DNA of 64,000 bases from a virus (lineage: Duplodnaviria > Heunggongvirae > Uroviricota > Caudoviricetes), in the IMG/VR virus record IMGVR_UViG_3300029286_001043, positions 28,228 to 92,227 of that record; one strand, 5' to 3'. Below are positions 3,042-28,238 of the stretch, piece after piece. Position numbers and translations under genes: made by a program. Below the pieces are notes generated by a model. It worked only from the letters and a program-made list of their open reading frames with translations, did no database searches and was not told the origin of the DNA. Position 1 is the stretch's first letter, and every line of letters starts with the position of its first letter.

Positions 3042-3182
3042 TCATAACTCCAATTTGGCTGCTGATTGACCGCACTAAAACATTTTTACTATTTCTAGTA
3101 GTTTTAGATACTCGGTTATTCCAGCAAGTTTCGACATTTTCTATATAAATTTCTTTATATAGCCGCATATATATCCCTTCCT

Positions 3183-4502
3183 TTAGGATAATCCGCTTAT
3201 TGTTCCATGGCAAAACGCGCCTGGATTTATTACTTTATACGCTGCTGAACTTAAAAAACCCTTTTGGGCTTTAAGATCTGTAGCAGTAATTAAAGTACTT
3301 GTAGTAAAAAGTGGAATATACGGGCAGAATGCAAATGCGCCTTGAATAAAACTGTCACCTTTCCATCCAAAGATTATTTCAGCTGCAGATAAGAACGGAT
3401 CATGAACAACAACGCGACCGTCCAGTGTACCTAAAACATAAGGACCTGTAGGTGTAATACCGTCAAGACCGGGAGCGGCTTTAAAGTTCGGAGCCAACTG
3501 ACGAATAAGTCTTGATGTATCGTTACCGGCAATAATCCAAGAACATTGCATCCTTAATGTCTTAGCTAAGATGTTAACGTTTGCTTTTTCAACGAAATCA
3601 AGGAACTGATATTTCTTCCAAATCCATTCTGCGCCAGTAGCAACAGTAGCGGAGAAATCGCCTGGAGTAGTAGCACAGCCAGTACCAGTTGAAGCATCGT
3701 TGATCAAGTCGATACCTAAGTGGTCCATCGTAACACGAACTTCTCCACCTAAATATTTTACTACTTCGTCTTCAAGAGAAAGACCATGAGCCTTCTGAAG
3801 ATCAAATGCAGCAGCTAAGCTGTATTGAGCCATCAGAGGGAAATCCTCGGCAGTTACTGTCTCATAAGTTAAGTCGAAATTAACTGAAGGAACAGCAGCT
3901 GAGGTCTTTGTTTCGTAGTTGTATTTGTATGTTGCGCTACCAGATGTGATCGCGAGGTCATTTGTAATTTCAATTGCACCAGTTGTATAGTTGATTGTAC
4001 CAGCTTCAAGTAAAGAAGCATCGTCAGCAACCAATACATTCGCGCCATTATCTGTATATGTACGAGTACCACCTGCATCTACAATGGTAATAACTGCAGA
4101 ACCGGCAATTACAGGAATATAAGCTAATGTACCAGTTTTAATGTTCGCAGCTTGTCCGACTTTAGTTGTCAAAACAACAACTTCGTCCTGAACTCTCGTA
4201 GAAGCATACCTACGACCAGCCCTTGTTGTATTATGGCCAGTTTTTGCAGCCATCATATTTGAATCTGCAGCAATTGCGCCTTTAGCCTGACCATACTTCA
4301 CGTCAAGATAAAAAACTCCGCCAGATCGGCGGTCTAAAGCCTGAACAATCGCCAACTCGTTTAATACTGTGCTAGGAATAAGAGCAGCTATAATAGGTAA
4401 CTGTCGTTCTGTAATCTCTTCTTTAGAAGAGTGTCGGACTATATCATCATCCTCAAAATATTTACTAATTCTATTTTGGGAGCTGGGCGCTATTTGAAAC
4501 AT
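3183..4502 (-). CDS. gp23: major capsid protein, T4 gp23-like (HK97 fold)
   Basis: 439-aa ORF in the head module downstream of the prohead protease gene. Composition and length are typical of T4-type MCPs. The conserved C-terminal tail is duplicated in the adjacent HEG. Confidence 0.75.
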   Translation of the reverse strand: MFQIAPSSQNRISKYFEDDDIVRHSSKEEITERQLPIIAALIPSTVLNELAIVQALDRRSGGVFYLDVKYGQAKGAIAADSNMMAAKTGHNTTRAGRRYASTRVQDEVVVLTTKVGQAANIKTGTLAYIPVIAGSAVITIVDAGGTRTYTDNGANVLVADDASLLEAGTINYTTGAIEITNDLAITSGSATYKYNYETKTSAAVPSVNFDLTYETVTAEDFPLMAQYSLAAAFDLQKAHGLSLEDEVVKYLGGEVRVTMDHLGIDLINDASTGTGCATTPGDFSATVATGAEWIWKKYQFLDFVEKANVNILAKTLRMQCSWIIAGNDTSRLIRQLAPNFKAAPGLDGITPTGPYVLGTLDGRVVVHDPFLSAAEIIFGWKGDSFIQGAFAFCPYIPLFTTSTLITATDLKAQKGFLSSAAYKVINPGAFCHGTISGLS

Positions 4503-10520: not shown

Positions 10521-11627
10521 TTACGCCTTGGACTGAATCAGACCATTCACAACTGTTATTGTGAAATCCCATCCATCGATGAAGGTACCAGTAAACCCAC
10601 TTACTGCTCCAGAATATCCTGAGAATCCAGAGATTCCAGAGTAACCTGATTTGCCAGAGTACCCACTGAATCCAGAGATTCCTGAATAACCAGAAATACC
10701 TGAGTATCCTGAAATTCCAGAATACCCGCTGAATCCAGAAATACCAGAATAACCAGAGAATCCACTTATACCCGAATAGCCAGAGAATCCAGAGATACCT
10801 GAATAACCTGAAAATCCAGAGATACCAGAATAACCTGAGAATCCACTTATACCACTATACCCGCTATAACCTGAAATTCCTGAATAGCCAGAAAATCCTA
10901 ATGTAGTAGGTTCTCCTGAAATTCCAGAGTATCCGCTGAATCCTGAAATACCGCTATATCCAGAGATACCAGAATATCCTGAAATACCGGAATATCCACT
11001 ATACCCTGAGATACCTGAATAACCAGAATATCCTGAGATTCCTGAGTATCCGGAGATTCCACTATAGCCTGAATATCCTGAAATACCCGAGTAGCCAGAG
11101 TAACCAGAGATTCCAGAATAACCACTAAATCCGGAAATACCTGAGTAACCTGAAGTTCCCGGGCTATCTCCTGAATATCCTGAAGTTCCTACTCCTGAAT
11201 AACCAGAGATACCAGAATAACCTGAGTAACCAGAAATTCCGGAGTATCCACTGAATCCTGAAATACCGCTATATCCTGAATAGCCTGAGATTCCAGAATA
11301 TCCACTGAATCCTGAAATACCTGAGTATCCGGAAAATCCTGAAATACCAGAGTAACCAGAATAACCGCTGATTCCAGAGTAACCACTTATACCACTGTAA
11401 CCTGAAATTCCAGAGTAACCTGAGATACCGGAATAACCAGAAAATCCTGAAATGCCTGAGTAACCTGAAATACCTGAGTAACCTGAGATACCTGAGTAAC
11501 CTGAGATACCGGAATAACCTGAATATCCAGAGATACCTGAATATCCTGATTCCCCGCCGGCTTGACCAGAGATTCCAGAATAGCCGCTTGCTCCTGTACT
11601 GCCTCCACCACCGTGATATATACTCAT
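10521..11627 (-). CDS. hexapeptide-repeat fibrous protein, (G-Y/F-S-G-I-S)n ~55 repeats, with a short non-repetitive C-terminal domain
   Basis: 368-aa ORF made almost entirely of GYSGIS/GFSGYS units. C-terminus AVSGFTGTFIDGWDFTITVVNGLIQSKA. Open through a ~1-kb 18-nt tandem repeat. Other frames of the repeat are also open (the 75/65/74-aa shadow ORFs). Confidence 0.65.
   Translation of the reverse strand: MSIYHGGGGSTGASGYSGISGQAGGESGYSGISGYSGYSGISGYSGISGYSGISGYSGISGFSGYSGISGYSGISGYSGISGYSGISGYSGYSGISGFSGYSGISGFSGYSGISGYSGYSGISGFSGYSGISGYSGYSGISGYSGVGTSGYSGDSPGTSGYSGISGFSGYSGISGYSGYSGISGYSGYSGISGYSGISGYSGYSGISGYSGYSGISGYSGISGYSGISGFSGYSGISGEPTTLGFSGYSGISGYSGYSGISGFSGYSGISGFSGYSGISGFSGYSGISGFSGYSGISGFSGYSGISGYSGISGYSGISGFSGYSGKSGYSGISGFSGYSGAVSGFTGTFIDGWDFTITVVNGLIQSKA
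10575..11600. repeat. tandem 18-nt (hexapeptide-coding) repeat array
   Basis: Imperfect repetition of units such as cctgaaataccagaataa/cctgagtaaccagaaatt throughout. Confidence 0.8.
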
Positions 11628-11663: not shown

Positions 11664-12107
11664 TTACGCTAATGTTAAATCTACAATCGTAGCATTTGCT
11701 GCATATACTAATATAATAGATGAAACTGCTGTAGCATCGATACACTGCTTGAACCCGTCTCCGGTAATCAAACTAGTTGCCGGAGTATTTGAAGCCGAAT
11801 TGAAGAATACGTCTACCCGCCCAGTTACACAATAAATATCCAGATCTAAAGTGAAGTTTCCAGTAGGTACTGTAATTGTGTCTACTTCAGTATCGTCTCC
11901 AGTATATGATTCTGAAACTATATTGCTATTACTTGCATATGGGGCATCTGAAGTCTTCGTTATCCCCGTAGGCAAAGGAGTTCTGATTGTCTCATATGTT
12001 TCCTTTGATTCCCCGGGTTCTATTCTTGTACTTCCGACTGTTACTACTGTTGCTGTACTGTTAAGATAGGTTGGACACATGTTCAACTCCTTCTTTATGA
12101 AATTCAA
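11664..12107 (-). CDS. hypothetical protein, Thr/Ser/Val-rich (possible structural/beta-rich)
   Basis: 147-aa ORF downstream of a HEG. The start may instead be the internal MCPTYLN Met at 12080. Confidence 0.4.
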   Translation of the reverse strand: MNFIKKELNMCPTYLNSTATVVTVGSTRIEPGESKETYETIRTPLPTGITKTSDAPYASNSNIVSESYTGDDTEVDTITVPTGNFTLDLDIYCVTGRVDVFFNSASNTPATSLITGDGFKQCIDATAVSSIILVYAANATIVDLTLA

Positions 12108-13026
12108 TTAATTTTTGTTTTAATAATATTTTATCTTTTAACTCTTTTTCCCAAACAACTAAAGTTTTATAGCCATACTCACTATATTTTTGTAATCTAT
12201 TATTATCTTTTTCTTCAGAACCTGATATATTATGCCAATAATCTCCATAAAGCTCAACAATCTTCTTTTGACCGTTAATATTTATAAAATCAGGAAAGAA
12301 TCCTCCTATCATAACTTCAAACCCACCTACAAATTTGTAGTTACTAGGAAATAAATTATTTAGTATATCTAATAATTTTTGTTCTGATTTATTAATTTTT
12401 TTATTATGAGAACTAGCTTTAGTCATCATTAACATATGTTCTTTAGAATTAACTTGATTTGTTTTAGCTTCTTCCTTTTTAATTCCAGACATATTTTTAC
12501 ACACTTCATCTCGTTTTTCGGTATGTGACCAATGAGATTTGTCCCTCTTTGCTCGATATTCAGGACTTTTCCACATATTTAATCTGGCAATACTTCTATT
12601 CTGTATAGCTTCAGGAGTAGCATTACCAATTTTTCTTTTCTCTAATAATTTATCTCTTCGGATAGGATCAGACCATATTTGTTTCCAACCGAATAATTTA
12701 TAATTTATAACACACAAATGAGAACAGAATTGTTGATCAGATCGCTTACCTATAAATATATTATTACATGTTAGACATTGCTTTTCTTTTATTTTAGATT
12801 TCACATTTTCTCTATAACATTTTCGAGAACACACTTGTTTATATCCTTTAATTATATGAACAAATTTTGTAGAATTACCACATATTATACAACACCCATC
12901 TAATTCTTTCTTTAAGTATTTATCATAATAAACCCTAGAAGAAAGTTTATGCGTTCTCCATACATGTTTAGATAACCCTATTATAGTATTAAATTGTCTA
13001 TTACATATTAAACATGTACAAATCAA
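12061..13026 (-). CDS. homing endonuclease-like protein (multiple Zn fingers + Vsr/DUF559-like nuclease)
   Basis: Cys-rich N-terminus (CxxC x4). FPDFININGQKKIVELYGDYWHN...YKTLVVWEKEL nuclease core. TTG start preceded by AAGGAGAAAAGG. Confidence 0.65.
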   Translation of the reverse strand: MICTCLICNRQFNTIIGLSKHVWRTHKLSSRVYYDKYLKKELDGCCIICGNSTKFVHIIKGYKQVCSRKCYRENVKSKIKEKQCLTCNNIFIGKRSDQQFCSHLCVINYKLFGWKQIWSDPIRRDKLLEKRKIGNATPEAIQNRSIARLNMWKSPEYRAKRDKSHWSHTEKRDEVCKNMSGIKKEEAKTNQVNSKEHMLMMTKASSHNKKINKSEQKLLDILNNLFPSNYKFVGGFEVMIGGFFPDFININGQKKIVELYGDYWHNISGSEEKDNNRLQKYSEYGYKTLVVWEKELKDKILLKQKLIEFHKEGVEHVSNLS

Positions 13027-13147: not shown

Positions 13148-15424
13148 TTATTCTTTCATTGATTCCTGAATCGACTTCAGTATATCTTTATTCTCTACAT
13201 GAACTACTTTTCTCTTCGACTCATATGGCTTCTTGTCGATCTTCATATTCAAATCATTAGCTAATCTTCTGATTTCGCTATCAGCACCTTCCCATGTTTC
13301 CCAAGCTTCAGAAGGAAGATTGTCTACTACATAATCAGTTACTTCAGAATTCCCCTCTAATCCAGCCTTATGAGCCATTCTAACGAGCTCTTTGATCTTT
13401 CCTCTATACTGAGGGCCGATCGTGCGAGCTTCTTTGATCTTCTTTGAATCTCTTTCCTTCTTGCTTAATGGAGTATAAGGATAAAGTGTTCCGGTACCTT
13501 TGTCGCCATCATCCACTTTGTCTTCCTTCTTCGCTTCTTCAGTAACTATATCAGGTTCTACAACTGGAGCTACTTCCTCTTTCTTCTCTTCTCCAGGAAT
13601 ACCAGTTATAGTACGATCGATTGGTTGTACCTCAGGATTTACCGTCGTCACCTGAATTCCACCTTCTGTAGTAACGATGTTAGTTTCCTTATCCTCGTCC
13701 TTTATAATTACCTCGACATCTTCTTTCACCTGTGCTTCATTGGCCTTTTCGGCCTTGATCGGCTCTTGAACTTCTTCCTTTACCTTAGGATTATTTACAC
13801 CTGTTGATGTAATTTTGGCATGTGATAAAGCAGTCAAGACATCTAATATTCTTTTTGCTGGCATTCCAATACTTATAAGTGCTTGATTGATCTGACCCCA
13901 AGTATATGTTTCATTGTTGTCTTCAACAATCTTCTCTTCTCTTACTCCTTGCTGCATTAATACCTGACTTACATAAGGAACCAGTTCGTCATCAGCCTTC
14001 TGCTTTTCTTCAGGAGTAAGATCATTATACTTCCTCTTGAATAAATAATTAGCAATATCATCCATCAACTGCTCAGAAGTTACATTTTTTTCAATAACTA
14101 CCTCTTCTTCAATTTCTTTCTCTTCTGTCTCAGTAGGCTCGGTTGTCGGCTCTTGAGGATTCTTCTCGAGAGCTTCCTTGCGCCTAGTTAATGCGGCCTT
14201 CAACCTAGTCTCTTGTTCGGCAGTAATATCTCCCTTCGTTGCGGTCTTCTCGATTCGGTCCATTACTTCTTCGAGCGACACAGCATCTATAGCTTTGTGG
14301 ATCTTGCGAAGGATTGAAGTAGCAGTTCTAGTTACAGCTGCATTCGCTTCGTCTTCTTTCTTGCCTTCGACTATTGATTCATTAGGATTTACTAAATTAT
14401 TCACGTATTCCTCCGTCTCTCTATTCGACAAAGCACCAGAAACATTATCTAATACCTGTTGATAAATACTATTTGAATCCTTCATTCCGTTCTTCAAACA
14501 TTTATCTACAACTAATCTGATTGCATCCTTTACATTAGGGCTGATCGATTCACTAATCTTTATCTTCACTTTACCGCTCATCTCGGAATGCTCATCATTA
14601 TAATCCTTCAATGCAGCTTCAGCATTCTCTTTCTTTCTATAAGTAGCAATTACTTCTTCGCCTAATACAATCTGGAATACTTTCTCGTTTACTGACTCAT
14701 ATATCGTTAAAATCTTGGCTTCACGATTAAATTTAGCTACTTCCTCTCCTAATACTAAAAATAATATACTATTTCCAGTTTTAGAATCTTGAGTCTCTTC
14801 CCAAGTAATTCCCTTTTCCTTTAATATATCCTTTGCCTCAGCAAAATCATGACAGACTTCGGATTTAGATTCGTTTACTCTCGACTCATTTGGTACTTTC
14901 GGAGTTACTGTATTCTGAGTCGACGGTCCGGTACCTTCAGCCTTGATCTCATCCTTTACTTCAGGTACCTCTTCTTCAGGCTTTACTTCCTCTTCTTCTT
15001 TCAGGAAATACTTCTCGACTATGTCTACAGATACTGACGTCGCCTCGACCTTCTTCATCGCTGCCAATATAAATTCAGGAATGTTTGATATGTCTACACC
15101 GAGCTCAGCTGCATCGGCCAAGGTGTTCTCTGACGCGTCTATAAGTATCAGGTTGTTAACTGTACCACTTGCATCCATGTCCCGCTTCAGATAAAAATAT
15201 TGATCTGCCCCTTTTGCCCCTAAATATTCCTTCTCATCAGGAAGCTCTTCAGTAGGCTCGGTCTCAGGCTTTACTTCGTCAGTCGGCTTCTCGCCAGTAG
15301 GAGGAGTTGAACCTTGAGGATCTTCTGTCCCGCTGTCCTTTTCAAGTGGATCGACAGGCTGCTCGTCCTCAACTTCAAATAGACTCTTCATTTCCAATAT
15401 TAGATTCTTAGTTCGCTTAAACAT
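13148..15424 (-). CDS. large acidic protein (Glu/Lys/Pro/Thr-rich; candidate scaffold/internal head or decoration protein)
   Basis: 758-aa ORF with long E/K/P/T-rich low-complexity stretches in the head-gene block. No enzymatic motif. Confidence 0.5.
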   Translation of the reverse strand: MFKRTKNLILEMKSLFEVEDEQPVDPLEKDSGTEDPQGSTPPTGEKPTDEVKPETEPTEELPDEKEYLGAKGADQYFYLKRDMDASGTVNNLILIDASENTLADAAELGVDISNIPEFILAAMKKVEATSVSVDIVEKYFLKEEEEVKPEEEVPEVKDEIKAEGTGPSTQNTVTPKVPNESRVNESKSEVCHDFAEAKDILKEKGITWEETQDSKTGNSILFLVLGEEVAKFNREAKILTIYESVNEKVFQIVLGEEVIATYRKKENAEAALKDYNDEHSEMSGKVKIKISESISPNVKDAIRLVVDKCLKNGMKDSNSIYQQVLDNVSGALSNRETEEYVNNLVNPNESIVEGKKEDEANAAVTRTATSILRKIHKAIDAVSLEEVMDRIEKTATKGDITAEQETRLKAALTRRKEALEKNPQEPTTEPTETEEKEIEEEVVIEKNVTSEQLMDDIANYLFKRKYNDLTPEEKQKADDELVPYVSQVLMQQGVREEKIVEDNNETYTWGQINQALISIGMPAKRILDVLTALSHAKITSTGVNNPKVKEEVQEPIKAEKANEAQVKEDVEVIIKDEDKETNIVTTEGGIQVTTVNPEVQPIDRTITGIPGEEKKEEVAPVVEPDIVTEEAKKEDKVDDGDKGTGTLYPYTPLSKKERDSKKIKEARTIGPQYRGKIKELVRMAHKAGLEGNSEVTDYVVDNLPSEAWETWEGADSEIRRLANDLNMKIDKKPYESKRKVVHVENKDILKSIQESMKE

Positions 15425-15839: not shown

Positions 15840-16102
15840 CTGAACAATTTCCCCATTAAATTTAAGTCTACACTCTCGATTATCTTAGTACGAACTGAAT
15901 CTTCGACTATCGTCTTCTCTTCCATGGTCTTCGCTCTATTGGTCAGGCATTGTTCGAGCAACGAGCCTTGTGGAGCAATGTCTGAAGTATCTACAATCTT
16001 CGTTTCGACTACGACCTTGGGTTTCAATTGACCGAGTATAGCATCCCGCATGTTCGGACTTGCTACTTCGCCGGTAATATCTCGTTCGTTAGGCGCTTCC
16101 AT
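15836..16102 (-). CDS. hypothetical small protein
   Basis: 88-aa ORF with a 4-nt overlap to its neighbour. Confidence 0.35.
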   Translation of the reverse strand: MEAPNERDITGEVASPNMRDAILGQLKPKVVVETKIVDTSDIAPQGSLLEQCLTNRAKTMEEKTIVEDSVRTKIIESVDLNLMGKLFR

Positions 16103-16198
16103 TCTTACTCCTTCTTACCTTAATACAATATCCACAGTCAGCCATTATGCCATTACTCCTTCACCATCTGAATTATACACTTTTTGTATTCTCCATAT

Positions 16199-16384
16199 CT
16201 ACTCCTTAGTATCATATCTGAAATGCCAAATCTTATCTTGTTTTACATGATGCCCAAAATCTAGTTCTACTGACTTCTTATTACATTTCGGACAACCCAT
16301 TTCATAAATCTTGTCTTGTACATCAATCGTTGCTACATATTGATAATTGCACTTCGTACAGCGAAGCCATAATGTTTCTTTCAT
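16199..16384 (-). CDS. small Zn-ribbon protein
   Basis: 61 aa with CTKCN...CPKCN. Confidence 0.35.
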   Translation of the reverse strand: MKETLWLRCTKCNYQYVATIDVQDKIYEMGCPKCNKKSVELDFGHHVKQDKIWHFRYDTKE

Positions 16385-17092
16385 CTGTTCTCCTTTAGGT
16401 TTGTACTGCGAGTTTCGGACTGCTCACCTAAAGTGTAGATGAGTTAATGGCTGAAATTTATAGGGGAAGGCGTATAGTTTTTTATACTAGGCGAAGACTT
16501 CCCCTGCGCGCTTTTCGATGAGCGCCTCTTTGTCGCCAAATTTATTGAAGTAATTACCTGGACAGGAAGCCTAAGAAGTTCTCGGTTGATAAAAGAAGAA
16601 ACATAACTTGTCTTAGGTCGTTCTCTCTAGTCTTTCGACCATCGAGGTTAGCCTTGCGCGCTTATCCCTTACTGCCTTGACGAATGTAGTTACTAGTTTG
16701 GCACTCAGCCCCACTACAATCTACATTCTTTTAATTGAGCCTATAATACCTTGACTCTTTAGACTTTAGACTTGAGGTTGCAGGCGGTTAAGCCCGAAGG
16801 AATTCAAATTGAGAATAATCTCAATTCTAGTTCTCGTATTTATCTATTATAGATAATCACCAATTCTCCCAAGTTTCGTCTGGCAGAAGTACGCTTCCTT
16901 TTTCCGATTTTTATCTCTGCACATTAATTACTTCTCAAAGAACGATTGAATATGAATATATCCTGTCTATACGGATACCCTAATAAGACATCTGATCCCA
17001 GATGGGTTAGTCTTCTGACTTCTCAGCATACTCACTAAATCTACTAATTGCTGAATATAATAATCTCTATAATACTCTTCTAGACTCTGCAC
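16385..17092. other. ORF-free, GC-elevated ~700-bp region with multiple hairpins (candidate structured RNA / regulatory or origin region)
   Basis: No ORF >=60 aa in any frame. Visibly higher GC than flanks. Duplicated motif cYtGCGCGCTT (16504, 16653). Perfect hairpins AATTGAGAataaTCTCAATT (16809-16828) and TTATCTAttaTAGATAA (16842-16858). Confidence 0.4.
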
Positions 17093-17656
17093 TTACTCTA
17101 GAAGATCTGTCACAGCGTTTACGACTTCCAATTTCCCGTCGATTAATGCTGGCTCGTTACTGAATATATCTAACTTATTGTCTCTTGCCTTAGGATCGTA
17201 ACACCTAACAATCTTTATCTCTGTTACCTGCCCGGTGGATTCTCTTAAACTTATCTCTTTCAATCCACGGTCAGTCAAACCTTTCCAGCTTACTTCTTCT
17301 AGCATTGCCAGATCCTTGCGTCTGTGAATCCATTCAGCAATACATTTTGTTACCTGAACTCCACCTATTTCAATTGTTACTGGAGTTGCTAGATTGGTCT
17401 TCTGAATCCTAATTCTTAGACTTAATAACTCTTTCAAAAGATCGGAGTGTGCTTGAAGCCATTCTGAAACCTGTTGTTTCTGATCTGTATATACAGGAGT
17501 CTCGTTACTTAAATGTGCTGAATGCTTCTGAATCTTTACTCTTATGTCTTCAGCCTTGCGAACTAATTCTTTGCTTGACTTCAACGCTTCAATTATCTTC
17601 ATTTGTCTCTCCTTTTGGTTTGGGTTAACTACTATGTAATCGGCTTCTTCTCCCAT
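17093..17656 (-). CDS. hypothetical protein immediately downstream of the portal gene
   Basis: 187-aa ORF, same strand. Confidence 0.5.
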   Translation of the reverse strand: MGEEADYIVVNPNQKERQMKIIEALKSSKELVRKAEDIRVKIQKHSAHLSNETPVYTDQKQQVSEWLQAHSDLLKELLSLRIRIQKTNLATPVTIEIGGVQVTKCIAEWIHRRKDLAMLEEVSWKGLTDRGLKEISLRESTGQVTEIKIVRCYDPKARDNKLDIFSNEPALIDGKLEVVNAVTDLLE

Positions 17657-17689: not shown

Positions 17690-20600
17690 CTATTTATTAA
17701 AACTTTCTGGAATTATCTTCGCTTTCCCATATTGCTCTTCCCACTTCGTATTCTTTCCTTCGTTCAGCGGTAGTGCCGCCTTCAAATCTGAATTGTCGAT
17801 CCTTGCATTTATACTTGCCTTGAATGGATTCTCTCCTGCACCGGCCGCCATTGGTGCTCCTCCTACTTCGCCCTCTTCTGGAATCTCTGGGGTAGTAAGA
17901 GGCCCTACTTGCTGTTCTACTTCTTTAACGACCTTGTCAAAATCAAAGTCAGACAAGTGCAAGATCTTCTCGTTGAAGTATTTCAGTACTTCTAATTTAT
18001 TGTACCCAGTCTCGCCTAATGTAGTATTCAAAATTTCAACCATCTTAGTAACTACATCGGCTCCACTCGACAGTCCTTCCATCAATTCAGCATTTTCGGC
18101 AGTAGACGTTTCTCCCATCTTTAATTCAAACATCTCTAGATCTGGATCTTTACCTTGATAGGCTAAATGAATCTGCACTAACCTAGTCAATCCTACAATT
18201 AGAGCTCTTTGAATTCTTCGGCATTGACGAGAGAACCTAATATCAAGACGTTCGAAGTTATTACTTCCTATTCCACTGGGTACATCCTTCTGATATCCAC
18301 CTAACAATTGTAACGGTACTCTTAAAGCACAAGAGAGTTGATCTCTCAACTCTTCAATATCCCTTATCCATTTTATATCTACCTCCCCACCTAATTTTTC
18401 TATTCGTACACTATTGACATCTCCCCATACAGGCAGGATTATATCTTCCACGGCTGAATTATGTAAAAATACGCCAGCAGCAACCGGAAAATTATGGTTA
18501 TGTTCTATTTGAATATCATAAGTATCTTCACGTTCAATTAATTGTTCAACTCTAATTACTTTGTGATTCTGAATTACGGCTAAATCAGATTGTACTTTCT
18601 GTTTTCTTTCTGTCCATATCTTTGTAATTGTTTCCCCGATAACTCGGTCATAATGTTCTCTATTTTTATATTTTTGAGTATGTGTTTTTATACATTCGAA
18701 AGTCTCTCCACAACCGCAAGCGCAAGTCCTCGTTTCACGCCGATTTTTATATTCAATTTTAAATTTAGGACCGGATGGACATGAATTGATGTGCGCACCT
18801 AATGATCCGGCAGTTCCTAACCATGTTATATAACATAGCGGACAGGTTAATTGTCTAAGTTTTTTTGCTGATTTTTTCTGTTTAGATTTTATTATTTTCG
18901 CTTTATCTTTACCGTAAATTTTATCGTAAGAACCTAATTTTTTACCTTTATTTTGTTGAATTTGACCGATATGACTAATTGATAACTGTTCCTTTATTTG
19001 TTTCGCTTTATTTTCGCCATATAATTCAATATATGTTTTATTTTTGCGTGTTTTACTAAATGAATGTTTTCGCTGTTTAACTTTTATCTGTTCAGCCTTT
19101 TCTTCCCCATATATCTCTTCATATGTTTTACCAGTACAATGCTCTTTCGACCATTGCCCGCCAAACTTACTATGATAGGCCCAATGATCAATATAATGCA
19201 TCAATTCAAAATTGGTAGGATCATTATTTAATTTATTAAAATCAATATGATGAATAGACATACCGCGTTTTGGCTTTTCGCTATTGCTTTTCTTAAAAAC
19301 TAATCTATGTTCATAATGATATTGATTATCGGCTGGATTATATACTAATCTATACCCAGGTAATCCAGGATTCGTTGCAATTTTAGTATACAATGGCATA
19401 AGACTTTCACTTTGTCCTAAATCCTTAGCCATTTTGTATTCCCCATTCCTCAGCATAAATCGATGATCCGGTGTACAATCTATATATTGTTCGTTGTCTA
19501 AATGGACTCGAATTAATTCGGCATTCAATCGAGTTTTACATACTCCTACTAGTTTATTAGGTTCTAATTCTAAAGTTTGTTCATTAATAGTCCATACTGA
19601 TTTTCCAATATATTCATTTGGTTTTTCTGCCATTTCTTCGATTGTTGGTTCAGTACCATCCAATAAACTTATTTTAGTATTTCCTCTAAGACATAAATTG
19701 TCCATTCTCTCTTTATATGGATTTGGACTAGTTGCTGAAATATCTAATGAATTGTGAACAAAAATACCATCAGTTAATCCAAAATTATGATTTCGTTCTG
19801 TGGTTATATCATAAGTATCTTCTCTAATAACTAATCTTTCTACTCTAACTACCTTATGATTAATAATTGCAGGTTCTAATTTTCTTCTTGCCCATGCCAG
19901 TTTTAGAGATTCAGATCTCCTTTTTAACGTCTCTGGTGACGGTTTAATTCCAAGGTGTCCTTCACTCATATGTTTTTTCGATTCGGCGGAATGAATTGTA
20001 CCTTTATTCTTTACCCCAATCTTTTGTTTATGTTCTTCAGTCATCGGCTTATTTTTTCTATTATGCCCAACTGCATATTGCCATAAAGACGTAATTATAA
20101 CTTCTTTGCTATAACCACATCCACATTTACAAAAACGAATTTCGTGCGGTAATCTTAAATACCGTTTTCCGGCTAAAAAATTGTTTCTGCGTGATTCTTT
20201 TTGTTTATTAATATTTTCAATTGGCCTTTTATATCCAGTTCGTGATTTAGAAATTTTAGCGCAAATATGACTATTCTCTTTAGTTAATCCCTTTGTTACA
20301 TGAGGCTTAACTAATCCTAGAGACTTCTTCACTAAATAGGTTTCAGCTTTCTTTGCTAATCTTTCATCCGTTTCCTTAGTTAATCCTTTACTCCACCCAA
20401 GCTTTAAAGATTTATTATATGTTTTGTATTTACCATCCTTAGAATTTTGAATATTATGTAAAGCTAAATGTCTCCCTCTAAGTTCAAATTTTAAATTAGA
20501 TGGATCATCATCGCATTTTCTAAAATTCTTATGATGAATAACATGTCCTTTCGGCGTTTTGCCGAATAAAAATTCGAATGCAGTTTTAAATACCAATTCA

Positions 20601-23125
20601 TATTTTCCGGATTTAGGATTAAATATATAATTTCGTTGATCCTTATTTCGTCTAGTATATAATGGCATAAGACTTTCACCTTCAATCAGATCTTTAGCTT
20701 CTTTATACTCCCCATCTCTCAGCATAAACCTATGATCCGGAGTACAATCAATATACAATTCGTTATCTAAATGGACTCTTACTAATTCAGCATTCAATCT
20801 AGTCTTCTGAACATTTATTATTTTATCCGGTTCAAAAGCTTTAGTTTCAGTATTAATACTATATACATATTTCCCAATATATTTATTAGGATCATCAGCC
20901 ATTTCCTTAATAGTAGGATTAGATCCACTTAGCAAACTTATTTTTGTATTTCCTCGAAGACATAAATTCTTCTTCAATACTGCGCCGTACTCGTCTAATA
21001 TTGCAGTAACAGCATCGGCATTTGAATTCTTGTCTACTCCAATCAGGAATACTCTCTGTCCCTGTCCTCGTACTACTCTGCTCATCAACAAAGAATCTTC
21101 CGCCATCTTCAATCGTTTGTAAGGAACTAATGCATTATTCAATACACTCGTTCCATATTTACTTGATACTCTTCGAGCATCTGGAGTTAGCATACTCATA
21201 GGGTTATATCCTTGTGTTGCCGAATCTCCAAATATAACTCTTCTCTTCTTCGTACCCAATAATCTGAAGTGGGCAAATGCATATGGAGGCAATAGAGTTT
21301 CAGCTGTATTCACTGACATTCCGGCTTGACCTGGCGTCTTAAAGAATCCGACCAATCTTCCGTCTACGTCTACTCTTGAATAATCTAATGGATGGGCCGA
21401 ATCTTCTACACTTACAATCCCTACTCCTGGAATTGCATTGATCTGGACGAACATATCACCATACAGACAATTATGAACAAATACCCCAGCCCCAACTGAA
21501 AAATTATGATTTTTAGTTGTAGTTATATCATATACATCTTCACGTTCAATTAATCGTTCAACTCTAACTACTTTATGATTCAAATATTCTTTGCGTTTAC
21601 TCAACATTACCAGACAATTAGCCGTTCTAGCTAATCTCTGCTTTTCAGTTATTTCTATTTTAATATGATTTTCTTTACGAAAAGAATTAATTAATGAATA
21701 AGTTGTATTTTGTTTAGTATTATGGCATTCCTCACAAAGTGTTATTCCATTACTTATATCCCAAAATGGTTTCCAAGTCATTGCTAACCTAACCAATATT
21801 TCCTTATCTTCAATAGGAGAAAATTGTGAATAATGTTTAAGAAATTCAGTTAATAATATAGAAAAAGGAATAATATGATGTGATCTAAGATGATGGCCTA
21901 TCTTTCCACATTCCTGACAGGTATAACTATCACGTTCAAAAACTTCCTTTCTCCAAAATTTATATTCTTCTAATTTATGGATAAGACCATATAAATTAAT
22001 ATGAATAAGACCTTTCCAACCGCTTTTCCGAATTGGTATATTAAATCTTCTTAAACGATCAGCTATAACCCCGCCGGGTACATTAATTATATTCGATATC
22101 TGTGGAATTGAAAACATTTGTTTTAAATATAAATCTTCTAAAAGTTCACGAGTAATAATATATTTATATTTTTTCTCTTTAACTATATTTCGGTTTTGAA
22201 CTATTTTTTGAGTTTCAGTCTTTGAACGAAGTGGAATACCGAATTTCCTTAAATAACAATCAACCGATGCACAGCCGATTAACTTGGTTATCCAAAGCAC
22301 AGAAAACTTTTTATTAACATAATTTTCGATCAAAAAATCCTTAGTTAAACTTAATTTTTGTTTTGAATACCAAAGGTTATCCTCAGGATTATAAACTCCA
22401 ATACCACCTTTATAGGCCTTAGTATACAACGGCATAAGACTTTCGCCTTCAACTAAATCCTTAGCTTCTTTGAACTGACCATCTCTCAGCATAAACCTAT
22501 GATTATTCGTACAATCGACATATTCACCATTGTCTAAATGAACGCGAACTAATTCAGCGTTCAGACGAGTTTTATAAACCCCAGCAATAGTATCTACTTC
22601 CAATCTCATAGTTTCAGGATTAACACTCCATAAATACTTCCCAACATATTCTTTCGAATTTTCAGCCATTTCTTTAATAGATGGCTGAGAACCGTCTAAA
22701 AGATTAATCTTCGTATTTCCCCGTAAACACATCGTGTACGCCCAATCGTATATTACTTCTTCTAAATTTATACTATCAAACAGCTTGTCAATCTGGTATT
22801 GATATTCCTTACTCTTTGCATCTGCCCATACAGTAACATTGTTTGTCGTACTCTTGCTCGTGCTGAAGTCTGAATACAGTTCTACAGCTGAACTCATCAA
22901 TGGGTGTTCTACGCTCGCCTTCTCCACTGCTACATATACCGATCGCCGGTCCGTAGCGACCTGGAGCATCTGTTGAATTGCCTTGTTCAGATCAGAGGTT
23001 ACAATCCCAATTCGCTTAAATTGCTCTTTCTCTACTTCTGATGTCTTGATTACTGGTAATTCCTTGGCAGGTATGACAGAAGTACTAGGACTTAACTTCT
23101 TACGCAGATAATTGATAATGTCCAA
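17690..23125 (-). CDS. gp20: portal protein (T4 gp20-like) interrupted by three inteins; 1811-aa precursor, ~575-aa spliced extein
   Basis: Extein segment ...DIKWIRDIEELRDQLSCALRVPLQLLGG... aligns with T4 gp20 ...[20 protein letters not shown].... Located just after TerL. Three insertions each start CLRGNTKI(N/S)LL, contain a TxxH block (DCT(N/P)(N/D)HRFM) and end (V/I)F(V/L)HN followed by C/S/S. TTG start with AAGGAG RBS. Confidence 0.8.
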   Translation of the reverse strand: MDIINYLRKKLSPSTSVIPAKELPVIKTSEVEKEQFKRIGIVTSDLNKAIQQMLQVATDRRSVYVAVEKASVEHPLMSSAVELYSDFSTSKSTTNNVTVWADAKSKEYQYQIDKLFDSINLEEVIYDWAYTMCLRGNTKINLLDGSQPSIKEMAENSKEYVGKYLWSVNPETMRLEVDTIAGVYKTRLNAELVRVHLDNGEYVDCTNNHRFMLRDGQFKEAKDLVEGESLMPLYTKAYKGGIGVYNPEDNLWYSKQKLSLTKDFLIENYVNKKFSVLWITKLIGCASVDCYLRKFGIPLRSKTETQKIVQNRNIVKEKKYKYIITRELLEDLYLKQMFSIPQISNIINVPGGVIADRLRRFNIPIRKSGWKGLIHINLYGLIHKLEEYKFWRKEVFERDSYTCQECGKIGHHLRSHHIIPFSILLTEFLKHYSQFSPIEDKEILVRLAMTWKPFWDISNGITLCEECHNTKQNTTYSLINSFRKENHIKIEITEKQRLARTANCLVMLSKRKEYLNHKVVRVERLIEREDVYDITTTKNHNFSVGAGVFVHNCLYGDMFVQINAIPGVGIVSVEDSAHPLDYSRVDVDGRLVGFFKTPGQAGMSVNTAETLLPPYAFAHFRLLGTKKRRVIFGDSATQGYNPMSMLTPDARRVSSKYGTSVLNNALVPYKRLKMAEDSLLMSRVVRGQGQRVFLIGVDKNSNADAVTAILDEYGAVLKKNLCLRGNTKISLLSGSNPTIKEMADDPNKYIGKYVYSINTETKAFEPDKIINVQKTRLNAELVRVHLDNELYIDCTPDHRFMLRDGEYKEAKDLIEGESLMPLYTRRNKDQRNYIFNPKSGKYELVFKTAFEFLFGKTPKGHVIHHKNFRKCDDDPSNLKFELRGRHLALHNIQNSKDGKYKTYNKSLKLGWSKGLTKETDERLAKKAETYLVKKSLGLVKPHVTKGLTKENSHICAKISKSRTGYKRPIENINKQKESRRNNFLAGKRYLRLPHEIRFCKCGCGYSKEVIITSLWQYAVGHNRKNKPMTEEHKQKIGVKNKGTIHSAESKKHMSEGHLGIKPSPETLKRRSESLKLAWARRKLEPAIINHKVVRVERLVIREDTYDITTERNHNFGLTDGIFVHNSLDISATSPNPYKERMDNLCLRGNTKISLLDGTEPTIEEMAEKPNEYIGKSVWTINEQTLELEPNKLVGVCKTRLNAELIRVHLDNEQYIDCTPDHRFMLRNGEYKMAKDLGQSESLMPLYTKIATNPGLPGYRLVYNPADNQYHYEHRLVFKKSNSEKPKRGMSIHHIDFNKLNNDPTNFELMHYIDHWAYHSKFGGQWSKEHCTGKTYEEIYGEEKAEQIKVKQRKHSFSKTRKNKTYIELYGENKAKQIKEQLSISHIGQIQQNKGKKLGSYDKIYGKDKAKIIKSKQKKSAKKLRQLTCPLCYITWLGTAGSLGAHINSCPSGPKFKIEYKNRRETRTCACGCGETFECIKTHTQKYKNREHYDRVIGETITKIWTERKQKVQSDLAVIQNHKVIRVEQLIEREDTYDIQIEHNHNFPVAAGVFLHNSAVEDIILPVWGDVNSVRIEKLGGEVDIKWIRDIEELRDQLSCALRVPLQLLGGYQKDVPSGIGSNNFERLDIRFSRQCRRIQRALIVGLTRLVQIHLAYQGKDPDLEMFELKMGETSTAENAELMEGLSSGADVVTKMVEILNTTLGETGYNKLEVLKYFNEKILHLSDFDFDKVVKEVEQQVGPLTTPEIPEEGEVGGAPMAAGAGENPFKASINARIDNSDLKAALPLNEGKNTKWEEQYGKAKIIPESFNK
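18458..19693 (-). other. intein 3 in portal (412 aa, HNH + NUMOD-like repeats + Zn fingers)
   Basis: CLRGNTKISLLDG...AAGVFLHN followed by SAVEDII. Contains MSIHHIDFNKLNNDPTNFELMHYIDHWAYH and YGEEKAEQIK / YGENKAKQIK / YGKDKAKIIK repeats. Only 19 extein residues separate it from intein 2. Confidence 0.75.
19751..20962 (-). other. intein 2 in portal (404 aa, HNH-like + NUMOD-like repeats)
   Basis: CLRGNTKISLLSG...GIFVHN followed by SLDISAT. Contains HVIHHKNFRKCDDDPSNLKFEL...HLALHN and WSKGLTKETDERLAKK repeats. Confidence 0.75.
21470..22729 (-). other. intein 1 in portal (420 aa, HNH endonuclease insert)
   Basis: Begins CLRGNTKINLLDG after extein ...YDWAYTM and ends ...GAGVFVHN before CLYGD. 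HNH motif YTCQECGKIGHHLRSHHIIPFS...NGITLCEECHN. Boundary checked at nucleotide level (aat at 21470-21472). Confidence 0.75.
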
Positions 23126-25846: not shown

Positions 25847-25873
25847 CGCCTCCAGTAATTCTGGTCAGCTTAA

Positions 25874-26053
25874 ATTATTTTTTAATTTCTCTTACTTCCC
25901 ATCTAGCACGTTTAATATTTGGATCTCCTATTCCAGCTATTGCTGGAACTTCAGCTTTATTTAACATAAATTCAATTTCCTTTCCAGTAATACCATCATC
26001 ATAACCATCTGATAGATAAGAAAATCTATTTATTTCGAATTTTTTATTCTTCA
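25874..26053 (-). CDS. small hypothetical protein (59 aa) between putative TerS and TerL
   Basis: Hand-found ORF MKNKKFEINRFSYLSDGYDDGITGKEIEFMLNKAEVPAIAGIGDPNIKRARWEVREIKK with upstream AGGA. Below the track length cut-off. Confidence 0.3.
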
Positions 26054-26184
26054 TAATTTATCCTAACTTCTTTCTCTGTTCAATAATTTCGCCAGACACG
26101 ATCTTCCCATCCTGAACTTTAAGATCGGCAATCAGAGTACCAAATCCTAATTTCTCAGCCTCTTCACTTAACTGCTCAAATATT

Positions 26185-28004: not shown

Positions 28005-28238
28005 CTATTTACTCGGTTTCTTTACCTGGTCAACATAAAAATCTACAGGTTTTAATTCTTTTCGCTTTACTGACAACTTATTATTTGGATTGATTACCTC
28101 CTTTTCTCGGCATTTAGTCAAATGACCGTGCCATTTTTTAATTCCTCGTACTTTCTTCTCATAAGCTTCAACCCCCCTCTTCTTCATTGGGGTTTCTCTA
28201 CGCCTTGTACTTGTTTTTACTGTCTTTTCTTTTCCCAC
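28005..28238 (-). CDS. small basic (Lys/Arg-rich) protein, paralogue of ORF 33436..33666
   Basis: 77 aa. C-terminal ...KRKELKPVDFYVDQVKK matches ...YRKELKPLDFYISKIRK in the paralogue. Similar size and charge. Confidence 0.45.
   Translation of the reverse strand: MGKEKTVKTSTRRRETPMKKRGVEAYEKKVRGIKKWHGHLTKCREKEVINPNNKLSVKRKELKPVDFYVDQVKKPSK

Follow-up and report, generated by a model that had tools for sequence, protein, structure and literature searches.

A 708-nt island at positions 16385-17092 of the viral DNA analysed here encodes on its minus strand a structured non-coding RNA (ncRNA), which very probably belongs to a real structured RNA family that had not been catalogued before. In uncultivated phages, this RNA is coupled one-to-one to a gene for a DUF6847 protein. 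The analysed DNA, hereafter the window, is the 64,000-nt stretch from positions 28,228 to 92,227 of the IMG/VR record IMGVR_UViG_3300029286_001043, a virus of the Caudoviricetes. The whole RNA has 388 nt (16547..16934), as indicated by its match to the covariance model R1, by covariation in its stems and pseudoknot, and by full-length alignment to the closely related loci L143, L144 and L146. This RNA, its parts and all the genes of the window mentioned below lie on the minus strand. The window copy has every feature by which the family is defined, namely the R1 match, a conserved strand called box A, a closing stem, a pseudoknot, an array of AAG triplets and an adjacent DUF6847 gene. The initial annotation of the island had listed a structured ncRNA among several candidates, and the covarying helices and the relatives in more than 100 loci show that candidate to be correct.

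Distribution of the RNA

A protein search of IMG/VR with DUF6847 yielded four loci, and in all four the DUF6847 gene was followed by non-coding DNA that could be aligned to the minus strand of the island. Three further loci were recovered with a pattern derived from the most conserved stretch, and a profile built from eight DUF6847 proteins led to 80 viral loci. R1, a covariance model of the 118-nt 3' core, matched 73 of 81 sources (the window and the 80 loci picked by protein alone), in every case on the gene strand save for one weak match. In the window it matched positions 16545-16667 with 91.8 bits (E 3e-20). The core was also carried by nine of nine contigs from metagenome-assembled genomes (MAGs) with DUF6847 at 46-64% identity over the best aligned segment. 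The relatives of the RNA, all from uncultivated phages, have a median length of 344 nt (range 257-444) and occur in loci whose GC content ranges from 0.26 to 0.65.

No nucleotide match to the window was found by blastn and megablast among 50,697 deposited phage genomes. With Rfam 15, the complete window was free of hits at the gathering score, and a permissive search of the region 16100-17400 (E up to 10) produced no meaningful hit. When 16 related loci were searched with Rfam, only tRNAs, one sub-threshold YrlA match to an insert and noise were obtained.

Structure and covariation

Helices were counted on a MAFFT alignment of 50 distinct sequences (A6) that was not fitted to structure. Over the 31 pairs of four helices (P1a, P1b, the pseudoknot and P2), 86.6% of the alignment cells were paired, compared with 64.4 ± 0.8% after shuffling and 33-50% when the strands were slid. 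Cells changed on both sides numbered 401, against 139 in shuffled data, and the covariation score of 0.637 (shuffled 0.225) was reached by none of 500 shuffles. The paired fraction was 78.6% for P1a, 94.6% for P1b, 77.7% for the pseudoknot and 92.7% for P2. There were 112 G-U pairs and only 36 A-C pairs, and this excess shows that the structure resides in the gene-strand RNA and speaks against a DNA element.

From 5' to 3', the parts follow each other as P1a and P1b, the AGAUAAAAA strand, the pseudoknot strand, an H-type pseudoknot, an insert, the AAG array, hairpin Pa, a GAAYG sequence, hairpin P2, whose loop receives the pseudoknot strand, and a CUUC sequence that leads back to the closing stem. 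In P1a, the outer part of this stem, 8-12 nt ending 7 nt ahead of box A pair with the bases that come after a conserved 3' RGG. Native P1a duplexes had a mean energy of -11.3 kcal/mol, compared with -6.5 for partners taken from different loci (Mann-Whitney p=8e-19); the register is identical in nearly all loci, and ten of ten pairs have changed on both sides. In the window, the 5' strand GAAGUAAUUA (16925..16934) is a perfect 10-bp complement of 16556-16547, where the 3' strand UAAUUACUUC (16547..16556) is assigned by both the duplex-energy test and covariation. The inner part, P1b, is formed by the six bases directly before AGAUAAAAA and a CUNNNN sequence after the conserved GGCUUC. It lengthens the closing stem past a small conserved internal loop (AY opposite RGG), and two-sided changes are seen in six of its six pairs. 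The window strands of P1b are GUGCAG (16917..16922), parted from P1a by the conserved AU / AGG internal loop, and CUGUCC (16560..16565), which comes after the conserved single-stranded CUUC (16569-16566).

Box A is nearly invariant in the alignment and is represented in the window by the single-stranded AGAUAAAAA (16908..16916). In about 50 of 63 loci, its consensus, GAGAUAAAAA, lies 120-300 nt 5' of the core. It goes with the RNA and not with the DUF6847 stop codon, as extra tRNAs intervene between box A and the gene in some loci. Since the covarying P1 strands extend upstream of it, box A lies inside the RNA. A promoter role for box A was considered and dropped, GAGATAAAAAT and TATAAATW not being enriched in the window.

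The four bases 3' of box A form the long-range pseudoknot with four bases on the 3' side of the P2 loop, in the window UCGG (16904..16907) with CCGA (16582..16585). A complete 4-bp complement was present in 38 of 49 native pairings and in 26% of non-native ones. More than 12 different pair combinations were found, such as UCGG/CCGA, CUGG/CCAG, UUGG/CCAA, UUGA/UCAA, CUGC/GCAG, UUGC/GCAA and CCAC/GUGG. P2 itself (16570..16617) consists of P2a, CCUNNNN with NNNNAGG (CCUAAGA / UCUUAGG in the window), and P2b, AGUU with AACU, and has a U-rich loop that contains the 3' strand of the pseudoknot; its middle pairs vary among GC, CG, AU and UA. Just 5' of P2, hairpin Pa (16625..16646, CUC..GGUC-GAAA-GACU..GAG, pairs checked by eye) is followed by a conserved GAACG. 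A hairpin of variable sequence occupies the Pa position in all aligned cores.

The smaller H-type pseudoknot follows an A-rich tract in 23 of the 50 loci, including the window (16864..16893). Its first stem, S1, pairs CGY with RCG (CGU / ACG in the window) and is followed by AUA and by the second stem, S2, made in the window of the loop UUCUGCCAG and CUUGGGAGAA. For S2, native strands gave a mean of -5.6 kcal and non-native ones -2.1 (p=4.5e-9); the window copy reaches -8.9 kcal.

Three other pairings were rejected. A 3-bp hairpin CCY-GUNN-RGG proposed by RNAalifold gave way to P1b, a much better supported pairing of the same bases. Box A and the P2 loop could also pair in the window (GAUAAAA/UUUUAUC), but relatives do not keep this pairing; nor do they keep a P4-like pairing of GGAAGC with GCUUCC. 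Just 5' of the closing stem, many loci have a conserved UCUUUGA motif (about 16941-16935 in the window), which could indicate the 5' terminus or a site of processing. In some loci it pairs with a UCAAAG at the 3' end and lengthens P1; in the window this pairing is only partial.

The AAG array

The array lies between the 5' domain and the 3' core. In 64 elements, successive AAG triplets were most often 7 nt (171 cases) or 8 nt (129 cases) apart, against an expectation of about 10 cases for either distance. Harmonics were seen at 14-16 and 22-24 nt, and the triplets have the local consensus K-H-A-A-G-G. The median span of 72 nt corresponds to about 10-12 slots, usually arranged in two sets parted by a spacer or a hairpin. 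In the window (16653..16773), five AAG are followed by four AAG, and the sets are parted by an inserted hairpin (16728-16682).

R1 no longer matches in the loci of DUF6847 homologues at 27-35% identity (L108, L110, L112 and L113), and two-set arrays remain just downstream of these genes. Of all the features, the array thus has the deepest tie to DUF6847. It would be a putative unstructured platform on which protein binds at multiple sites. No paper on AAG repeats in this context was found in a literature search.

Embedded tRNAs and the variable insert

In about half of the loci, a tRNA or tRNA-like module detected by ARAGORN or Rfam separates the 5' domain from the AAG array. Unusual anticodons (aat, att, act, agg, tta, tca), or anticodons of 2 nt or 4 nt, are found in many of the embedded tRNAs. 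A second tRNA begins within about 10 nt of the P1 3' strand in L032, L045, L047, L050, L062 and L085. In L032 (3094-5126), the RNA is part of an array of 17 tRNAs: one is embedded in it (3465-3541), a tRNA-His begins 8 nt after the core, and a tRNA-Ala (3094-3169) lies far upstream of the RNA 5' end.

In the window, the corresponding position is taken by a lineage-variable insert (16776..16863) with three hairpins, including those at 16840-16856 and 16807-16826. The insert hairpins keep their position, with compensatory changes, in L143, L144 and L146.

Some tRNAs are of the suppressor type. One with anticodon tta begins 8 nt past the RNA core in L047 (3418-3493), and another with anticodon tca lies within the RNA in L044 (2406-2478), which hints that some of these phages recode stop codons. 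In addition, a module-bearing phage contig (L036) encodes a transfer-messenger RNA (tmRNA; 1866-2221; tag peptide ANPDLALQAA), which precedes the DUF6847 gene by about 300 nt.

The DUF6847 partner

The gene next to the window RNA (17093..17656; 187 aa) matches Pfam PF20935 (E 5.9e-8), and the conserved protein starts at M19 (position 17602). The association also holds when the RNA is used as the starting point: 30 of 31 RNA-pattern matches adjoin a DUF6847 gene on the same strand, and the remaining one, poor in AAG triplets, appears to have matched by chance. In most loci the RNA is downstream of DUF6847, typically a few tens of nt past the stop codon; in about eight loci it instead ends just ahead of the DUF6847 start. 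In L143, L144 and L146, the next gene begins 20-30 nt past the RNA end. When the neighbours in 89 loci were compared, no other protein family was common beyond near-identical contigs. As only DUF6847 is conserved, and at tight spacing, the RNA and DUF6847 form a tight module in otherwise unrelated neighbourhoods.

At least 959 DUF6847 homologues are present in a 90%-identity database, and at 50% identity there are 590 DUF6847 clusters. DUF6847 proteins are always single-domain proteins of about 170 aa, called 'hypothetical protein' whenever they are named, most entries being nameless. No match was obtained by tblastn of DUF6847 against 50,697 deposited phage records, and among species-representative genomes DUF6847 was found only on 19 MAG contigs, from many phyla. 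No paper mentioning DUF6847 was found in the literature search. The AlphaFold model (predicted local distance difference test, pLDDT, 84) has four long helices and a small sheet. An R-x5-H motif recalling HEPN proteins is present in the window protein; it is not conserved across the family, and this assignment was rejected.

A distant homologue (32% identity) is encoded by L105 (WJMJ01000060.1), a contig binned with a MAG of the Promethearchaeota (an Asgard archaeon); either an artefact of binning or a virus of archaea could account for this. Genes for cold-shock-domain (CSD) proteins were observed at most 1.5 kb from the DUF6847-RNA module in L143 (5928-6140) and L144 (978-1208), which are among the closest relatives of the window.

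Proposed function and alternative explanations

On balance, we lean towards a stable RNA that would work as a particle together with DUF6847. The RNA would be co-transcribed with DUF6847 and, in most relatives, with tRNAs, and would then be released as a stable RNA. Where tRNAs are embedded in it or abut it, cuts by RNase P and RNase Z would free the RNA, possibly leaving two pieces joined through P1 and the pseudoknot. Several copies of DUF6847 would bind along the putatively unstructured AAG array, in the way that TRAP and HutP read repeated NAG triplets, and the pseudoknotted core would be a specific anchor or the active part. For such a mechanism HutP is the closest precedent and TRAP a second one, and in biological terms GOLLD and ROOL come closest.

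Several points weigh against this proposal. DUF6847 is not basic (median isoelectric point 7.8), and its predicted fold, a helical bundle with a small sheet, is unlike that of any known RNA-binding protein. The adjacency of gene and RNA could stem from co-regulation instead of physical binding, and a host factor could be what binds the AAG array. As to novelty, a survey published in 2023 drew from IMG/VR 8,495 candidate structured RNAs, unnamed and 29-151 nt long (PMC10690425), and a fragment of the present RNA may already be among them.

A bolder form of the same idea can be put forward only tentatively. It would be a hitherto unknown phage ribonucleoprotein machine, with about 10-12 DUF6847 copies in a ring or filament on the AAG array, a core that has an activity or recognises a specific target site, and an RNA split into two pieces by way of the embedded tRNA. 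The core of such a machine would act on, for example, tRNAs, the translation apparatus or capsid assembly.

It is rather unlikely that the element is instead a cis-acting leader, whose AAG array, bound by DUF6847 or a host protein, would control downstream termination or translation in the manner of HutP/TRAP attenuation or of lambda N-nut and HK022 put antitermination. HutP binds two XAG-rich sites, each with three XAG and 4-nt spacers, which are separated by a linker of 12-17 nt, and only the A and the G are recognised (PMC2425495). The two NAG-triplet sets found here, with 4-5 nt spacers and a linker, fit this target pattern (PMC2425495): there are two sets of four to six (N)AAG and a linker or hairpin, and the two-set layout is seen in the window, L112 and L113. 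As with HutP and TRAP, the gene of the candidate binding protein, here DUF6847, is adjacent, and in relatives the element is often located 1-4 kb upstream of terminase genes. However, the likeness is one of pattern only. DUF6847 has neither a HutP nor a TRAP domain, and its helical-bundle model looks unlike either protein; the repeats are more numerous (about 10-12) and are enclosed in a pseudoknotted RNA, not in a terminator/antiterminator leader. TRAP targets are (G/U)AG triplets separated by 2-3 nt, unlike the spacers of 4-5 nt and period of 7-8 observed here. In addition, the second triplet set does not overlie an intrinsic terminator as it does with HutP: no U-tract terminator or other terminator-like site was seen on the minus strand after the array, where Pa and P2 follow. 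The downstream genes are not conserved, and the RNA can be on either side of DUF6847. Together, the covarying stem that joins the RNA ends and the tRNAs that abut both ends point to an excised stable RNA.

An RNA-only, self-assembling machine of the GOLLD/ROOL type, acting on or with tRNAs and having DUF6847 as a mere genomic companion, is also unlikely. The resemblance lies in the niche: as in GOLLD (RF01998) and ROOL (RF03087), the RNA is phage-encoded, elaborately pseudoknotted and situated in or near tRNA islands, and about half of its members embed a tRNA. GOLLD can also host tRNAs, in a linker that joins its variable 5' part to its conserved 3' part (PMC12286853), much as the tRNA here sits between the 5' domain and the AAG array with the 3' core. 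Yet RF01998 and RF03087 found no match in the window or in the 16 related loci, even at E up to 5-10. The present RNA is far smaller, at about 340-390 nt, than ROOL, and it also differs from both in its periodic AAG array and its obligate link to one protein gene. Many GOLLD members exceed 800 nt, and GOLLD and ROOL have no known protein partner (PMC12286853), in contrast to the strict two-way coupling to one protein described above. Moreover, all members of the present family seen so far come from uncultivated phages.

A very divergent RNase P-like RNA, or another tRNA-processing ribozyme with DUF6847 as its protein cofactor, is very unlikely. Similar to bacterial RNase P RNA, the element has a closing helix and a long-range pseudoknot beside a conserved A-rich strand, and it sits in tRNA arrays with tRNAs tethered in cis. 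Three motifs (GAGAUAAAAACYGG; GAAUGAC; GAAC..GGCUU) superficially recall the RNase P regions CR-I, CR-IV and CR-V of Escherichia coli M1 RNA, of which CR-I and CR-V form the P4 pseudoknot. On the other hand, no RNase P family model matched at E up to 10, and the topology is different, the pseudoknot partner being in the loop of hairpin P2 and not beside the P1 3' strand. No equivalent of the specificity domain was recognised by eye, and RNase P has nothing that corresponds to the AAG array.

A DNA-level element, such as the replication origin or pac-like site listed in the initial annotation, a cos site or an iteron array, is highly improbable. Short periodic repeats and hairpins are present, and in the window the island lies between packaging and head genes; however, the G-U pairs mentioned above maintain helices on one strand only, compensatory changes extend over more than 300 nt, the 7-8 bp period does not fit the DNA helical repeat, and the GC skew is uniformly negative apart from a brief reversal at about 16300-16600. 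Although selfish elements abound in the window (the portal gene has three HNH inteins, and one ORF is homing-endonuclease-like), a frameshifted pseudogene or the decayed mobile insertion also listed in that annotation is scarcely credible, with stop codons in all six frames, only short nucleotide-level matches by tblastx, and a homologous region that is non-coding and kept as base pairs, not codons, in more than 100 loci.

Two other systems offer partial parallels to the proposed particle. The YrlA class of Y RNAs, which functions with Ro60/Rsr, likewise has its two ends joined in a stem, a tRNA-like module in its interior and a dedicated protein encoded next door. In one locus (L025, 3112-3177), the insert matches the tRNA-like part of Rfam YrlA with 34.5 bits (E 0.001), and ARAGORN reports no tRNA there. 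This score is below the gathering score of 69 bits and concerns the insert only; the present RNA, about three times larger than YrlA, differs in its core and in having an AAG array, and no Ro60/TROVE gene was found nearby in the comparison of 89 loci. Phage phi29 pRNA is also a phage-encoded structured RNA that works with proteins, and in the window and L143 the module comes just after the portal gene. In most relatives, however, the module is not beside the portal gene; there is no similarity to pRNA in sequence or structure, and no evidence for a packaging role.

The island and its flanks

The island extends from the stop codon of DUF6847 to the start of an ORF for a 61-aa zinc-ribbon protein (16199-16384). 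As the initial annotation had stated, it contains no ORF of at least 60 aa, the longest on either strand being 41 aa. It is also the longest run without such an ORF on the minus strand, where every long ORF of the window is found. The remainder of the window had been described as densely coding, which is only roughly right because other gaps of 357 nt (1-357) and 338 nt (25847-26184, just upstream of the putative large terminase gene) exist on the gene strand. The reported GC elevation is real and modest: the island has a GC content of 0.394, with a peak of 0.445 at 16500-16699, compared with a window mean of 0.342 and with 0.27-0.35 in most of the other gaps, but nearby coding DNA reaches 0.48. 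Both strands of the island fold better than their shuffles (z -3.8 and -4.3).

The annotated absence of tRNAs and group I introns was borne out. ARAGORN found neither a tRNA nor a tmRNA in the window, the Rfam tRNA model gave no match at E up to 10 in 16100-17400, and neither group I nor group II intron models of Rfam matched at the gathering score or at E up to 10. The hairpins that had been pointed out were confirmed by direct reading (AATTGAGA/TCTCAATT at 16807-16826, TTATCTA/TAGATAA at 16840-16856 and GGGGAAG/CTTCCCC at 16463-16504), as were the EcoRI site (16800-16805) and the duplicated motif GCGCGCTT (16503-13 and 16652-63). Most of these features do not define the RNA, however. Two of the three hairpins belong to the lineage-variable insert, which is a tRNA in other phages, and the third is in the 3' flank, which is missing even from close relatives. 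The same flank contains one copy of the duplicated motif; the other copy consists of two units of the AAG array (AAGCGCGCAAGG), and no link was seen between the two. The conserved parts, i.e. the closing stem, the AGAUAAAAA strand, the pseudoknot, the AAG array, the CCU..AGG hairpin and the obligate link with the upstream DUF6847 gene, had been overlooked.

The non-conserved 5' flank (17092-16935, 158 nt), also missing from close relatives, bears a terminator-like hairpin (16989..17004) between the DUF6847 stop codon and the RNA. The non-conserved 3' flank (16385..16546, 162 nt) includes the GGGGAAG..CUUCCCC hairpin and the ribosome-binding site of the zinc-ribbon ORF. As neither flank is common to the closest relatives, about 55% of the island is accounted for by the RNA, the remainder being lineage-specific spacer.

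Neighbouring genes in the window

Upstream of DUF6847 in transcription order is a T4-type portal gene (17690-23125) with three intein-like insertions that contain HNH endonucleases. The Pfam hits comprise Intein_splicing in three stretches (1.8e-65), HNH_3, and Portal_T4 over residues 1557-1736 only. The three intein-splicing stretches with HNH endonuclease domains account for the length of its product, 1811 aa; the homologue in the close relative L143 is intein-free and has 591 aa. Downstream of the RNA, a 758-aa ORF (13148-15424) has no Pfam or PHROG match, and the syntenic ORF of L003 encodes 720 aa. Among the head genes, a 321-aa ORF (12061-13026) with DUF559 and endonuclease matches resembles a free-standing homing endonuclease. 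A 368-aa ORF (10521-11627) opens with long GYSGIS-type (collagen-like) repeats.

Significance of the RNA-DUF6847 module

To our knowledge, large pseudoknotted RNAs of bacteria or phages with strong covariation are rare. RNase P, OLE, GOLLD and ROOL are examples of those described so far, which have proved to be ribozymes, riboswitch-like sensors or unusual assemblies. The RNA described here is the second case, after GOLLD, of tRNAs embedded in a larger phage RNA, and its obligate protein partner, of a kind not known for GOLLD and ROOL, provides an immediate experimental handle. For DUF6847, whose 590 clusters at 50% identity are unannotated, the module is the first context to be assigned. Its periodic triplets suggest that RNA recognition in the mode of TRAP and HutP arose again on an unrelated protein fold.

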